Positions 54,635 through 64,000 of a stretch of DNA of 64,000 nt are shown here, in pieces. The stretch is from an uncultured Flavobacteriales bacterium. GTDB taxonomy: Bacteria; Bacteroidota; Bacteroidia; Flavobacteriales; UBA1820. The position numbers and the translations under genes were made by a program. Below the pieces are notes generated by a model. The model searched no databases, was not told the DNA's origin, and worked only from the letters and a program-made list of their open reading frames with translations. The stretch spans positions 135,938 to 199,937 of the forward strand of contig CABQBC010000001.1 in NCBI GenBank assembly GCA_902462305.1, written 5' to 3'. Numbering within the stretch: position 1 is the stretch's first letter; every line of letters begins with the position of its first letter.

Positions 54635-54910
54635 ATGGAACAAAAATATTGCCAGAGCTGCGGAATGCCGATGTCAGCCAAAGAGGATTTCGGGACCGAA
54701 AAATCCGGGAACGCCAGTCACGATTACTGCACATATTGCTACAAGGACGGAAAATTCACTTCCGATTGCACTATGGATGAAATGATTGGACACTGCGCAC
54801 GTTTTGTAGACCAATTCAACGAAGATTCGGCCGTAAAATACACCAAAGAAGAGGCCATTTCGGAAATGAAACGCTTTTTCCCTCAGTTGAAACGTTGGAA
54901 AAACGCCTGA
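54635..54910 (+). CDS. zinc-ribbon domain protein
   Basis: 91 aa with CQSCGMP...CTYC, two Cys pairs at the N-terminus. Confidence 0.55.
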   Translation: MEQKYCQSCGMPMSAKEDFGTEKSGNASHDYCTYCYKDGKFTSDCTMDEMIGHCARFVDQFNEDSAVKYTKEEAISEMKRFFPQLKRWKNA

Positions 54911-55460: not shown

Positions 55461-55871
55461 TCAGATATCCTCGAACTCAATATTGGTAAAGCGGCTCGAT
55501 AGCGAGATGTCTTCCTGCGTGCCCTCACGATCCGAAGCTACGGCGTGCTCGGCATCGATATCGTCAGGAGTCTTTTTATAGTCCTTTATATGACGTTCCG
55601 ATATGACTTCCTGCCCCTTTTCTTTCAAAATAAAATCGGTAGCTTCTTCAAAAAACGATTTAAAAGATTCGAAATCCTCTTTGTAAAGGTAGATTTTATG
55701 TTTCTTGTATTCGTTTACGCCCGATTCCTGGCTGAATTTTTTACTTTCGGTGATAGTCAGATAGTAGTCTCCGGCCTTTGTAGTCCTTACATCGAAAAAG
55801 TATGTCCTCCGTCCCGCCCTGAGTGCCTTGGAAAATATCTCGGTATTATCCTGGTATTCGTTTTCTCCCAT
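55461..55871 (-). CDS. PUR-alpha-like nucleic-acid-binding protein (DUF3276-like)
   Basis: 136 aa. RAGRRTYFFDVRTTKAGDYYLTITESKK and HKIYLYKEDFESF match the PUR-repeat pattern seen in Bacteroidota DUF3276 proteins. Confidence 0.6.
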   Translation of the reverse strand: MGENEYQDNTEIFSKALRAGRRTYFFDVRTTKAGDYYLTITESKKFSQESGVNEYKKHKIYLYKEDFESFKSFFEEATDFILKEKGQEVISERHIKDYKKTPDDIDAEHAVASDREGTQEDISLSSRFTNIEFEDI

Positions 55872-55907: not shown

Positions 55908-56001
55908 AAAAAATATTTATCATAAAAAGATACAGGCCATATAAAGTTTTAATGAAAAGAAAAAAAATGATTTTTTTGTTGCGGCAAACGGATATTAATG
56001 G

Positions 56002-56009
56002 TATTTTTG
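56002..56009 (+). promoter_or_regulatory. -7 box TATTTTTG upstream of tRNA-Lys
   Basis: Matches TAnnTTTG, about 35 nt before the tRNA 5' end. Confidence 0.4.
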
Positions 56010-56044
56010 TGCCCGCAAACAGGGATTAAAACACTGTGCGTTAC

Positions 56045-56117
56045 GTTTCGGTAGCTCAGTTGGTAGAGCAATTGACTCTTAATCAATGGGTCGTGGGTTC
56101 GAGCCCCACCCGGAACA
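56045..56117 (+). tRNA. tRNA-Lys (anticodon CTT)
   Basis: Folded by hand into a 73-nt cloverleaf. Acceptor gtttcgg/ccggaac (one G.U), D arm gctc-agttggta-gagc, anticodon arm attga-ctCTTaa-tcaat, T arm gtggg-ttcgagc-cccac and discriminator A. CCA is not encoded. Confidence 0.9.
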
Positions 56118-56121
56118 CAAG

Positions 56122-56157
56122 AAAAAGCCCAAAACATAATGTTTTGGGCTTTTTTTA
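56122..56157. terminator. intrinsic terminator after tRNA-Lys (usable from both directions)
   Basis: aaagcccaaaac-ataat-gttttgggcttt forms a 12-bp stem with T7 downstream. Confidence 0.8.
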
Positions 56158-56196: not shown

Positions 56197-56736
56197 TTAT
56201 TCAAACAGGATATTGTTTTGCGGCTTATTGCTGATGGTAGGCTTTACCTGTATCAATTTTACAGTTTGAGAAGTTATATGGTTGAACTGTGGATTTTTGT
56301 CTATGAAATAGACTTTCTTGCCGCGAAGGTTCTCGAAGTATTCCCAGATTTCCTCTTTGGACATGGACTCGAACAGTTCGTCGAGGTCTATGATATAATT
56401 GTTGTCAAGAAAGGAGGCGGGTTCGGTACGAATTTCCAGGGTGTCATCCCATTCTACCGGCCTTGTTTTAGATAGCTCATAGGTATTGTAATTCACATGG
56501 AAAAACATTAAATATATTTCCCTAGCATCAGAAAGATAGGTAAAATTTATAGGCCCCCAATTATATAAATGACTATTATTTGGTTGATCTACCCTTCTAA
56601 AACCCTCCGATACATTATTTTCACCTTTCGATGTTACGTAGAAATATACCGGTTCATGTTCTGTATCTTCCGACTGTGCATATCCTGCGGCAAACGGCAG
56701 CAGAAGCAATGCGATGAGTGTTATTAGTTTTTTCAT
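56197..56736 (-). CDS. small secreted protein, candidate immunity/accessory protein (paralog 2)
   Basis: 179 aa with signal peptide MKKLITLIALLLLPFAAGYAQ. AT-rich. Shares identical DNA blocks with the 56795-57346 gene. No family recognised. Confidence 0.6.
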   Translation of the reverse strand: MKKLITLIALLLLPFAAGYAQSEDTEHEPVYFYVTSKGENNVSEGFRRVDQPNNSHLYNWGPINFTYLSDAREIYLMFFHVNYNTYELSKTRPVEWDDTLEIRTEPASFLDNNYIIDLDELFESMSKEEIWEYFENLRGKKVYFIDKNPQFNHITSQTVKLIQVKPTISNKPQNNILFE

Positions 56737-56794
56737 GTGTAGCGGTAATAGAAAAACCGGGAGGAGGCTTCTCCTCCCGGGAAAATCATAATTA

Positions 56795-57346
56795 TTATTT
56801 CATGCCACCTTCTTTCACTATAAGGCCGCCAGGGCGATTATTCGAGGATAATTTTACTTGTATCAATTTCACCGTTTGTTGGTTTATCTGGCCGTATTCG
56901 GGATTTTTATCTATAAAATATATCTTTTTATTATATAATTCATCTGTATAATCCCAGATTTCCTCTTTGGACATGGACTCGAACAGTTCGTCGAGGTCTA
57001 TGATGTAATTGTTGTCCAGAAAGGAGGCGGGTTCGGTGCGGATTTCCATCGTGTCATCCCATCTCACAGGCCGTATTTTTGAAAGTTCATAGGTGTTATA
57101 ATCTATGTGCATAAATGAAGCTCTAACTTTTCTGGATTTTGAAATATATGAAAAATATATAGGTACACTTCTATGACATGGATCGTTATTGCTACCATTT
57201 CCTCTCCATACGCCTTCAGATAAGTCGTTATTGGATTTTGAATTTACGTAGAAATATACCGGTTCATGTTCTGTATCTTCCGACTGTGCATATACACCCA
57301 TTAAGGGTTGTAATAACAGTATAGTAAATATGATTAGCTTTTTCAT
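56795..57346 (-). CDS. small secreted protein, candidate immunity/accessory protein (paralog 1)
   Basis: 183 aa with signal peptide MKKLIIFTILLLQPLMGVYAQ. It starts 20 nt downstream of the lipoprotein gene stop. No family recognised. Confidence 0.6.
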   Translation of the reverse strand: MKKLIIFTILLLQPLMGVYAQSEDTEHEPVYFYVNSKSNNDLSEGVWRGNGSNNDPCHRSVPIYFSYISKSRKVRASFMHIDYNTYELSKIRPVRWDDTMEIRTEPASFLDNNYIIDLDELFESMSKEEIWDYTDELYNKKIYFIDKNPEYGQINQQTVKLIQVKLSSNNRPGGLIVKEGGMK

Positions 57347-57365
57347 TGTTTGTTTAATTTAATTC

Positions 57366-58829
57366 TTATTTTTTTGATTTTGGCTCTATGCCAACTTTGT
57401 TTAAATAATCATCTATTTTACTCCGTTCATCAGGAGGTAAATTTTCATATACTGGAGAACCTTGCGTTCCTCCATAAGGAACATATTTGTAAAAATCAGC
57501 ATCCTGTCCCGGATATACCTGACGCAATATGTCCCTGTAAAAATCCGTATTTATCATCTTATCATGCTGGTAATCGTTGACATCTATCAAAGTCCTATCA
57601 GGAGGATAAAGTCCCATTTCTGTACCGATAAGATGACCAAATTCATGAGTAATCACACCAAAAACAGCTTCTGGAGAGGCTGTTGCCGCGAAAACAGGAT
57701 CATAATATATCTTATAACTTGGAGGAGCATTTTTATAAAATTGTACTTCAGTCACCGCTTTACGACTAAGAGGCGAGTCCGATATTCTTATTTGTAAATC
57801 ATTCCTTCTTGCTACATTATAAATAAAAGCCCTATTCTCCGGAGATAATTTATTTATAAAATCCATAGTAGATTTATCGAATAATTCCACACCTGTCTTC
57901 ATAATTGCAGGCGTATCATTATCACCGCCTCCTCCGTCACCCGGCCCGCTCGGATCGGGGTCGGGGTCCACAGGTGGAACCGGGTCGGTATCGGTAGTAT
58001 CGCGTACATACGCGGTACAATCGGTTCCGTTGCAGTCCATGTCGCCGCAATACGGACACGGCCTAACCATACACCATTCCGGAAAATAAGAACAGAAGTG
58101 CACAGGGTCGTAATTGTACACAGGCAGCCAACCCTTTATTATCACTTCATCGAGTGTCGAAATATCCTGCCCGTCCCATACGGGTACTGTCGTCGAGCCT
58201 GGATTCGGCGGCTCGTCTCCATCGCCGCCCTGCGCCTGGGAAACCATTACCGCAGGGACTAACAGGCCGCGTTTTACCGGAGCACGCGATGTGTCTATCC
58301 GGCCGTCGGTGTAACCTACTCTTCCCAACAGTTTCTTGCTCATGTCAAAGAAAAGCAGATCCCCGGTAAAATCCATCATGTTAAGCGGAGAAATGTACAT
58401 GGCGTCGATACCCGCTTTTTTCAGATAAGCCGTGTCGCCTACGGCGGATGTCAACGTACTATACTGCCTGCCCAGGGAATCCTGGTAGAGAGTAAGCCAT
58501 ACGGAAGGGTGCATGTAACGATGGCGTTCACTTTCCGGGAACTCCGTCGCATCGTAGTTGAAGTAATAATCGCCGGGAGAGGTGCGTACACATACGAGTA
58601 CCGCTTTGCTGCTGTCGTCCCATTGGTACGAACCGGCCGTTTCCCAGTTCAAATCGAGGCCCGCGGACGGATGCGCCGCGGTAAAAGAGGTCTTCTGGCC
58701 CTTTACTATGTCATTTTCTTTCGTCATATGAGCGTCGTATCCATACTGGTAACTCGTCATTTTCGAGCAGGATACCACGCATCCCAATACAGCTATGGGC
58801 AAAAAGACTTTAAAAGTCTTTTTTCTCAT
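57366..58829 (-). CDS. lipoprotein with a Cys-rich module, a Pro/Asp/Gly linker and a C-terminal HExxH (HEFGH) zincin-like domain; candidate polymorphic toxin
   Basis: 487 aa with lipobox AVLGCVVSC. The Cys cluster is HFCSYFPEWCMVRPCPYCGDMDCNGTDC and the linker is DTDPVPPVDPDPDPSGPGDGGGGDND. The C-terminal roughly 175 aa contain VITHEFGHLIG. Confidence 0.65.
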   Translation of the reverse strand: MRKKTFKVFLPIAVLGCVVSCSKMTSYQYGYDAHMTKENDIVKGQKTSFTAAHPSAGLDLNWETAGSYQWDDSSKAVLVCVRTSPGDYYFNYDATEFPESERHRYMHPSVWLTLYQDSLGRQYSTLTSAVGDTAYLKKAGIDAMYISPLNMMDFTGDLLFFDMSKKLLGRVGYTDGRIDTSRAPVKRGLLVPAVMVSQAQGGDGDEPPNPGSTTVPVWDGQDISTLDEVIIKGWLPVYNYDPVHFCSYFPEWCMVRPCPYCGDMDCNGTDCTAYVRDTTDTDPVPPVDPDPDPSGPGDGGGGDNDTPAIMKTGVELFDKSTMDFINKLSPENRAFIYNVARRNDLQIRISDSPLSRKAVTEVQFYKNAPPSYKIYYDPVFAATASPEAVFGVITHEFGHLIGTEMGLYPPDRTLIDVNDYQHDKMINTDFYRDILRQVYPGQDADFYKYVPYGGTQGSPVYENLPPDERSKIDDYLNKVGIEPKSKK

Positions 58830-58877: not shown

Positions 58878-58885
58878 CAAATATA
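58878..58885 (-). promoter_or_regulatory. -7 box TATATTTG upstream of the lipoprotein gene
   Basis: Plus-strand caaatata, about 50 nt upstream of the ATG at 58829. A perfect 10-bp palindrome tgaggcctca (58864-58873) sits just downstream of it. Confidence 0.45.
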
Positions 58886-63693: not shown

Positions 63694-64000
63694 TTATGGT
63701 TCGGCTATGTAATAACCTTCTTTTTTGTATTTACCTCGGTCGAATGAAAACATAGCCGCTTCGGTTTTGTACTCTCTGTCTATGCCCGTAACCTTCAGAT
63801 AAGTACTGCCTGCGGAGCGGGACTTTTCGGTCACATCGACCAGCATCTTCGTGGCCGTGTCTATACCGACGAGTACGTATTCCGTAGCGCTCCGGGTATT
63901 TTTCGGCGTAAGGCGCAGGTATTGCACCGTACCTTTACGCTCCCCTGACAAAACCGCGAAATCACGCGCAAATGTATTCAAAATATCTGAAATCGACCCC
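63694..64000 (-). CDS. LolA-like outer-membrane lipoprotein carrier protein, C-terminal part (open to the window edge)
   Basis: The reading frame stays open beyond the listed TTG start to position 64000. The C-terminal beta-rich sequence (QYLRLTPKN...YLKVTGID...FSFDRGKY) resembles LolA. The assignment is weak. Confidence 0.45.
   Translation of the reverse strand, partial: GSISDILNTFARDFAVLSGERKGTVQYLRLTPKNTRSATEYVLVGIDTATKMLVDVTEKSRSAGSTYLKVTGIDREYKTEAAMFSFDRGKYKKEGYYIAEP

Follow-up and report, generated by a model that had tools for sequence, protein, structure and literature searches.

Here we describe a three-gene cassette of an uncultured Flavobacteriales bacterium, in which the strains of one species-level population keep the N-terminal part of a lipoprotein nearly unchanged and replace its enzymatic C-terminal domain (CTD), together with the type of the small gene that follows. 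The cassette lies on the minus strand at positions 56197-58829 of a stretch of 64,000 nucleotides (the window) and encodes a lipoprotein of 487 residues and two small secreted proteins. We read the locus as a lipoprotein-anchored polymorphic zincin toxin with a periplasmic cognate immunity protein and an array of orphan immunity genes, and give this reading a probability of roughly 0.55. The pattern is that of polymorphic toxin/immunity systems (PMC3482391), because an invariant carrier bears a divergent CTD which is swapped at a linker, the partner gene changes along with it, extra partner paralogs match the CTD types of other strains and the module occurs on what appears to be a conjugative element. 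Toxicity, the target, binding of the small protein to the CTD and the route of delivery are parts of this reading that we infer.

The lipoprotein gene (57366-58829, supported by 11 full-length homologs) is followed after 19 nt by the gene for small secreted protein 1 (183 residues, 56795-57346) and after a further 58 nt by the gene for small secreted protein 2 (179 residues, 56197-56736), all on the minus strand. An initial annotation, made from the letters of the window, had drawn the same three open reading frames (ORFs) and the same second gap, and had given 20 nt for the first. Small protein 1 carries a variable region of type a and is the candidate cognate immunity protein or inhibitor; the gene for small protein 2, with a variable region of type b, is a candidate orphan immunity gene. 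A tRNA-Lys(CTT) gene detected by ARAGORN on the plus strand (56045-56118) is convergent with the cassette and forms the conserved right-hand border of the variable array. Searches of Pfam, NCBIfam, PADLOC, PHROGs and PDB sequences with the three cassette proteins gave no meaningful match, in agreement with the initial annotation, which had recognised no named family for any of them. No further copies of the three protein families occur elsewhere in the window.

Homologs of the lipoprotein were found as 11 clusters, all of full length, in a collection of 5.8 billion proteins and were aligned (alignment A1). The encoding contigs are metagenome assemblies and metagenome-assembled genomes (MAGs) from NCBI, one of the latter labelled 'Flavobacteriales bacterium', and their sample names suggest that they come from human-gut cohort studies. 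They share the gene order FtsK, LptF/G, RibB, GalK, GalT, lipoprotein, small paralogs, tRNA-Lys and DUF3276, and each locus holds from two to at least six small paralogs. In alignment A1 residues 1 to about 300 are almost invariant, whereas the region behind the linker shares about 22-44% identity between the major types and retains HExxH and a few other residues. An invariant full-length gene in relatives was the outcome named by the initial annotation as speaking against its proposal; we found the opposite, namely about 300 nearly identical N-terminal codons joined to a CTD that is replaced. At the nucleotide level the boundary is sharp. Compared by blastn with three loci (L001, L004, L007) the window is 99.4-99.5% identical from position 64000 down to 57923-57934, and with a fourth (L097) the identity is 97.7% and ends at the same positions. 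This breakpoint corresponds to codon ~300 and lies within the GGGG of the linker. No similarity is left over the CTD, and it returns within the first small gene at about 57272-57293.

Divergence estimates by the Nei-Gojobori method separate the two halves of the lipoprotein clearly. Among strains with CTD types A, B1, B2 and C1, the proportions of synonymous (pS) and nonsynonymous (pN) differences in the N-terminal domain (N-domain) are 0.011-0.022 and 0.000-0.002, respectively, against a pS of 0.63-0.73 and a pN of 0.39-0.55 for the CTD between the major types A, B and C. The ratio of nonsynonymous to synonymous rates (dN/dS, NG86) of the CTD is 0.2-0.7. From the contrast in pS it follows that the CTD alleles are old and were imported by recombination, rather than having diversified recently in place. 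At least five deeply divergent CTD types coexist in one species-level population. A type C CTD is present in two lineages (L012, L004) that differ by a pS of 0.42 in the N-domain and of 0.25 in the CTD; the type C allele is therefore common to both, which suggests that lineages share alleles or that the cassette has been transferred. Hypermutation by a diversity-generating retroelement and phase variation were considered as sources of the variation and rejected, since saturated pS marks the alleles as old; neither a reverse transcriptase nor an invertase gene is found among the ORFs of the window between 54 and 62 kb.

The gene behind the CTD changes with it. Variable-region types a-g were distinguished among the small genes, and the first small gene is of type a behind CTD type A (window, L093), c behind B1 (L001, L002, L003), f behind B2 (L007, L008, L009, L010), g behind B3 (L097) and e behind C1 (L004). 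The CTD type thus predicts the type of the first small gene in 11/11 reliable loci, the window and L093 being both of the type-A loci that include this gene, and the first small gene, which encodes a Sec-exported alpha/beta protein of ~160 residues, starts 0-20 nt downstream of each CTD type. Further along, the order is strain-specific: c,a,b, c,d and c,b,d,a at B1 loci; f,c,a,d, f,e, f,d and f,b at B2 loci; a,b and a,e at A loci. Types b and d never come first, and type b, carried by the second small gene of the window, takes later places in arrays headed by CTD types A, B1 and B2. The later array members shuffle like orphan immunity genes. Of the one or more cognate small proteins proposed in the initial annotation, only the first behaves as such, by tracking the CTD type; the second also occurs behind other CTD types. 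One locus (L005) departs from the rule in that a CTD of type C1 is followed by a type-a gene. Its sequence agrees at 100% identity with L004 as far as a 53-nt repeat coding for signal peptide, and from there, again at 100%, with the type-a gene of L004 located 5 kb further on (L005 7479-7795 against L004 7479-7531 and 12426 onward, joined at the exact repeat). As L004 contains a perfect match to either half, a true mismatch between CTD and first gene was rejected, and L005 is most likely a chimera of metagenome assembly.

Divergence within the small genes is concentrated in the variable region (pS 0.38-0.83), as compared with a pS of 0.00-0.26 for the flanks among types b-f; type a, the first small gene of the window, is divergent over its entire length. 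Moreover, three variants of the C-terminal tail combine freely with the variable-region types. Taken together, the low pS of the flanks and the free combination of tails indicate mosaic arrays, in which gene conversion has homogenised the sequence around variable cassettes that are old. Contigs often end in the array or right after it, which a strain-variable repeat would lead one to expect; the array of one MAG (L004) contains an N gap.

The variable CTD of the window (type A, codons 306-487, 57369-57914, minus strand) comprises about 180 residues and contains the motif H395-E396-xx-H399, with HEFGH at residues 395-399 (57633-57647), and a third invariant histidine, H422 (57564-57566). When 42 CTDs are aligned, mean column identity is 21% and four columns only are invariant, namely the two His and the Glu of HExxH and a further His 14-40 residues downstream, which is followed by a nearly invariant Met. 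A profile of the CTD matches selecase (MJ1213, E=1.3e-5), projannalysin (0.03) and Spartan (0.05) in the PDB. Matches to Pfam are weak and include the nearest family, SprT-like, for 15/42 CTDs (E<=1), PhageMetallopep for 10/42 and Peptidase_M91, a family of NleD-like effectors, for 6/42 (best E 1.2e-4). One full-length member of the family, P0068, passes the curated threshold of SprT-like (PF10263; 26.1 bits, cut-off 25.6); the window CTD is below every Pfam threshold, and the window lipoprotein has no Pfam family at E<=1. The toxin families Tox-MPTase1-5, HopH1 and ALF are absent from the 25 listed of the 44 Pfam families matched by the 42 CTDs. An AlphaFold2 (AF2) model of the CTD is confident (predicted local distance difference test score, pLDDT, 88; predicted template-modelling score, pTM, 0.86), and the top neighbours found with it by Foldseek in the PDB are selecase/jannalysin (probability 0.99), with a template-modelling (TM) score of 0.5-0.6 on the target and of 0.33-0.40 when normalised to the CTD query, followed by the zinc-protease domain of BlaR1, Spartan and ZMPSTE24. 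Because of the invariant HExxH and His, the profile matches and the confidently modelled fold, the CTD is very probably a minimal zincin with catalytic activity. The suggestion of a C-terminal metallopeptidase in the initial annotation is thereby borne out by motif, profile and fold, and both the VITHEFGHLIG motif and the linker it had pointed out are present.

The two small proteins are paralogs with 63% identity over 179 residues (E=1e-77), each with a Sec signal peptide that ends in AYA|Q and lacks a lipobox, as the initial annotation had it in calling them secreted paralogs. Y19 and Q21 are invariant in 22 small-protein homologs, and substrates of signal peptidase I in Bacteroidota often start with an N-terminal Gln. 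A conserved signal peptide is followed by the variable region (residues ~35-96; codons at 57059-57244 in small protein 1) and by a C-terminal half which is conserved among types b-f. The AF2 model of small protein 1 has a pLDDT of 82 overall and of >90 for most of residues 30-170, and shows the variable region as a four-stranded sheet, then a conserved alpha/beta part. Foldseek found no match for this model in the PDB (best E 1.9) or among the BFVD viral structures (best E 0.62), and a PDB profile search with the small-protein family gave no match either.

The lipoprotein starts with a signal peptide and lipobox, MRKKTFKVFLPIAVLGCVVSC (codons 1-21, 58767-58829, minus strand). The lipobox cysteine is Cys21, or possibly Cys17; Cys21 is invariant in 14 diverse N-domains of the wider family. 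This lipoprotein signal peptide is the sole export element recognised in the protein. Codons ~22-240 (58110-58766, minus strand) form the conserved N-domain, with near-100% identity among strains, presumed to be the carrier, anchoring or targeting part. The N-domain family has no match in Pfam (14 N-domains) or in a PDB profile search. By hhalign the window N-domain is related to three of four other family groups with a probability of 92-98% over ~180 residues, and to the fourth with 63%. As the N-domains are distantly homologous, the whole architecture, beyond the CTD alone, constitutes a conserved family, and shuffling of the CTD onto unrelated carriers was rejected on the same grounds. A module of six cysteines follows at codons 246-271 (58017-58094, minus strand; residues 246, 253, 258, 261, 266 and 271), all six invariant in alignment A1; the initial annotation had counted seven, a number that the mature protein reaches only with C80 of the N-domain. 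Comparable Cys-rich segments are present in distant family members. The Asp/Pro/Gly-rich linker DTDPVPPVDPDPDPSGPGDGGGGDND (codons 280-305, 57915-57992, minus strand) leads over to the CTD.

In 1.84 billion cluster representatives, an exhaustive HMMER search using the profile of the full-length protein detected 51 proteins of a wider family. Of the complete members, most have 370-570 residues and combine a lipobox with a Cys-rich segment and a linker rich in Gly, Asp and Pro; their C-terminal ~170 residues match the CTD. A protein search with the CTD profile returned 10 distant SprT-like proteins and nothing else. All six distant gene pairs that were examined, in four contigs, have a small gene with signal peptide 6-17 nt downstream, and a hidden Markov model of the small protein recognises five of these six downstream genes (E 6e-79, 9e-65, 2e-31 and 1e-5, plus P0034). 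They include the tandem pairs P0036, with a gene for 183 residues, and P0050, with a gene for 179 residues (L098 1-10347), P0040 (L104), P0047 (L101) and P0058, which has two small genes (L103). The second small paralog behind P0058 (L103 3468-4340) encodes 117 residues, is seemingly truncated after the variable region and may be a decaying orphan. The gene behind P0050 encodes a clear small-protein homolog, even though the N-domain of P0050 is only remotely related to that of the window. The two pairs of L098 are found directly downstream of genes for Bacteroidota conjugation, TraM, TraN (DUF4138) and TraG, so that a conjugative element appears to carry the module. A tblastn search of PLSDB plasmids with the lipoprotein gave no match. 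Likewise, a contig scan with the lipoprotein alignment gave none, and one with GalT gave only a 73%-identical relative without synteny downstream.

On the reading as a polymorphic toxin, the lipoprotein would be lipidated and anchored in the outer membrane, and its CTD would reach the envelope of a neighbouring cell via contact, outer-membrane vesicles or lipoprotein exchange, possibly after release at the linker, to cleave a periplasmic or envelope protein there. As the partner is exported, neutralisation is placed in the periplasm, where the first small protein would protect the producer by blocking its own CTD type through the variable sheet. Extra paralogs, here the 179-residue protein of type b, would protect against the toxins of other strains, and further array members would be variants cognate to the CTDs of such strains. 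New combinations could arise by homologous recombination that uses the conserved N-terminal coding region or the linker at one end and, at the other, the conserved parts of the small genes (signal-peptide and 3' halves), and negative frequency-dependent selection could keep old alleles circulating. The most far-reaching version, in which an outer-membrane lipoprotein delivers a minimal zincin toxin in Bacteroidota antagonism independent of a type VI secretion system (T6SS), a periplasmic immunity protein of new fold sets strain specificity, and alleles and arrays record long-term balancing selection in the human gut, is a tentative one, and we hold it to be somewhat doubtful.

Several observations weigh against the toxin reading. 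The residues following Cys21 are SKMTSY, without the acidic surface-export signal common in Bacteroidota, and surface exposure of the lipoprotein is uncertain on that account. Trafficking or secretion modules (T5SS, T6SS, T7SS, Rhs, PVC etc.) are absent from the lipoprotein according to Pfam, NCBIfam and PADLOC scans, as the initial annotation had noted for T6SS and Rhs markers, and from the 14 N-domains as well. The small proteins are 59-80% identical among each other, as compared with 22-83% for the CTDs, and a Mantel comparison of CTD and partner distances shows a weak correlation (r=0.52, p=0.02 for 8 pairs) and is not significant for the 5 conspecific pairs; adjacency could alone favour co-inheritance of CTD and partner. 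Positive selection is not demonstrated, since dN/dS stays below 1 in every comparison, with saturation at synonymous sites. Finally, all CTD variants fall in one zincin family rather than into unrelated toxin folds, and the arrays hold small-protein paralogs only, with no orphan CTD fragments. Of the polymorphic toxin/immunity layout proposed in the initial annotation, the replacement of the CTD and the co-changing first gene have thus been confirmed, but the CTDs make up a single zincin family and the N-domain belongs to a conserved architecture.

The absence of a visible delivery system fits a different explanation, namely that of a self-protective pair of protease and inhibitor which is not aimed at other bacteria, similar to the KLIKK peptidases and potempins of Tannerella. 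A surface or vesicle protease would act on host, dietary or phage proteins, the small protein would be a co-expressed inhibitor or chaperone silencing it in the periplasm, and host antibodies or phages would drive the diversity. A zincin fold with an obligate small partner suits this equally well, and Bacteroidota peptidase genes are known that are paired with adjacent small specific inhibitors (PMC9890683). We nevertheless consider it unlikely, as it leaves unexplained why 1-5 extra paralogs match the CTD types of other strains and why the antigenically exposed N-domain is invariant and only the catalytic domain is replaced. Order and anchoring are also reversed with respect to the potempin inhibitors, the protease here being the upstream lipoprotein and the partner lacking a lipobox, and Foldseek of the small protein against the PDB gave no potempin-like match.

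The roles might also be exchanged, so that the effector function lies with the small proteins, as variable adhesins, bacteriocin-like proteins or antigens, and the zincin is a maturation or release protease tracking the variable region of its substrate. Multi-copy arrays of a secreted protein with one variable subdomain do resemble variable antigen families, and the fold of the small protein has no match among PDB or viral structures. However, a processing protease would be expected to recognise a conserved part of its substrate rather than to fall to 22% identity, no matching protease would exist for orphan copies, and neither Pfam nor the PDB revealed a toxin, pore-forming or adhesin signature in the small proteins, so that we regard this exchange of roles as quite improbable. 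Least probable by far is an artefact or a neutral pattern, produced by misassembly across repeats or by relaxed constraint on a decaying accessory gene. The likely chimera L005, mediated by a repeat, and the N gap in the array of L004 speak for it. Against it, identical combinations of CTD type and first-gene type come up again in samples and assemblers that are independent of each other (ENA, NCBI MAGs, Logan), every gene is an intact ORF, the catalytic residues are invariant and the dN/dS range of the CTD indicates constraint.

Some features of the flanks and spacers complete the description of the locus. What the initial annotation had called the tRNA-Lys terminator is present as a terminator-like hairpin at 56122-56154 (minus strand), but it sits between the second small gene and the convergent plus-strand tRNA. 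Within the 58-nt spacer a GC-rich hairpin, CCGGGAGGAG-aagc-CTCCTCCCGG, is followed by a T-run (56757-56780, minus strand) and is terminator-like or attenuator-like; sequence near it reappears between array members at other loci, and it may be a transcription attenuator of the orphan genes or a recombination landmark. About 49 nt upstream of the lipoprotein ATG, TATATTTG (58878-58885, minus strand) conforms to TAnnTTTG, which we take to be the -7 consensus of Bacteroides promoters, and is by this likeness a candidate -7 box of the lipoprotein gene; a sigma-70 scan gave nothing above chance. The tRNA-Lys side of the array is a hotspot of insertion (L003 9800-12200, L007 10950-15428). One strain has RtcB and small ORFs inserted between array and tRNA-Lys, and another has an S24-peptidase repressor, an AAA_15 ATPase and small genes directly after the array, with no tRNA-Lys in the following ~4.7 kb. 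An ORF for 62 residues at 55949-56137 (minus strand), antisense to the tRNA-Lys gene, is almost certainly spurious; it is annotated as a gene in several public metagenomes, e.g. L001 9243-9431. Beyond the tRNA, the conserved neighbours (including ORFs at 55461-55871, minus strand, and 54635-54910, plus strand) encode a DUF3276 protein (E=9e-46), a Zn_ribbon_2 protein of 91 residues, a GNAT acetyltransferase and a radical-SAM protein. All strains keep these genes in synteny, and they seem to have no connection with the cassette.

Known antagonism among gut Bacteroidota is based on T6SS effectors and on a small number of secreted toxins, namely BSAPs, BfUbb, bacteroidetocins, BcpT, Fab1 and CDCL, and a 2025 review of antagonism in Bacteroidales lists no lipoprotein-anchored metallopeptidase toxin. 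If our reading is right, the locus represents a kind of polymorphic toxin/immunity system not yet described, with an unusual, lipoprotein-based presentation. The toxin domain family, the immunity fold and the carrier domain would each be new, and a delivery route without dedicated secretion apparatus would be added. The cassette would further provide a compact hypervariable marker for strain typing in an uncultured gut lineage, and the envelope target of a minimal zincin acting in the periplasm would be a potential vulnerable point of the Bacteroidota envelope.

Polymorphic toxin systems were defined by comparative genomics, and they include the lipobox-anchored APD1/APD2 predicted in Amoebophilus and the zincin domains Tox-MPTase1-5 (PMC3482391). 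As in these systems, a conserved N-terminus is joined to an enzymatic C-terminus replaced by recombination, a small gene co-varies and additional immunity-like genes are present; the zincin of the window is roughly as small as the Wss1/SprT-like Tox-MPTase domains, and, as in APD1/2, the lipobox comes immediately after the signal peptide. In contrast, the window has no Rhs, filamentous-haemagglutinin, T6SS, T7SS or PVC element, its alleles share one fold without orphan toxin fragments, and its immunity-like protein is Sec-exported and of unmatched fold. SitA, of the SitA/SitI systems of Myxococcus, is a lipoprotein toxin delivered by TraA-mediated outer-membrane exchange (PMC5562445). A lipobox lipoprotein, a polymorphic C-terminal domain that is a toxin in SitA and toxin-like here, an adjacent immunity or immunity-like gene and an association with mobile DNA are common to both, and strain discrimination within a species, a feature of SitA, is what we propose for the window. 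Generic Pfam and NCBIfam scans of the lipoprotein showed no sequence relationship to SitA, no search for TraA/TraB or SitA sequences having been made. To our knowledge, no TraA-like outer-membrane exchange system is known in Bacteroidota.

With regard to the enzyme, a functional precedent is VgrG2b of the H2-T6SS of Pseudomonas aeruginosa, a zinc metallopeptidase which is toxic in the periplasm and neutralised by the immunity protein PA0261 (PMC6899460). A zinc metallopeptidase with cognate partner is common to both, toxicity and neutralisation having been shown for VgrG2b and being proposed for the window. VgrG2b is fused to a T6SS spike and the window zincin to a lipoprotein, and VgrG2b, unlike the window CTD, is not known as an allelic series; PDB sequence, profile and fold searches with the window CTD did not detect it. 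The array recalls the orphan immunity arrays of acquired interbacterial defence (AID) in gut Bacteroidales, tandem T6SS immunity genes which are strain-variable and linked to mobile elements (bioRxiv 10.1101/471110; PMC12247911). In both, tandem immunity or immunity-like genes are present in addition to the cognate one and differ from strain to strain. In contrast to AID, the window array consists of paralogs of one new family directly behind their own toxin-like gene, and the small proteins match no known T6SS immunity family in Pfam, NCBIfam or PADLOC. The KLIKK peptidases of Tannerella forsythia target the host, and each is paired with an adjacent small specific inhibitor, a potempin, that protects the envelope of the producer; potempins are upstream lipoproteins and beta-barrels (OB or eight-stranded), and the abstract of the paper reports neither within-species cassette swapping nor orphan arrays (PMC9890683). 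The small genes of the window, unlike those of potempins, are downstream, have signal peptidase I signals without lipobox and encode a protein modelled as alpha/beta.

Structurally, the CTD is nearest to the minigluzincins selecase and projannalysin (PDB 4QHF-4QHJ, 4JIX) and to SprT-like zincins (PF10263), with which it has in common HExxH, the downstream His and probably the minimal scaffold. Minigluzincins are archaeal, soluble and of ~110 residues, and the window CTD adds an N-terminal pair of helices and a C-terminal helical extension. The logic of specificity has a counterpart elsewhere. In the colicin E DNases and their Im proteins, homology extends over all types, for the toxin domains as for the immunity proteins, specificity resides in a variable patch, and colicin strains may carry extra immunity genes. 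Colicins are soluble, encoded by plasmids, released by lysis and active in the cytoplasm; the enzyme of the window, in contrast, is a lipoprotein zincin with an exported immunity-like protein. Nevertheless, since the CTDs form one zincin family and the N-domain is part of a conserved architecture, the locus resembles the allelic specificity of colicin DNases and Im proteins more than the modular systems of Rhs and contact-dependent inhibition (CDI).

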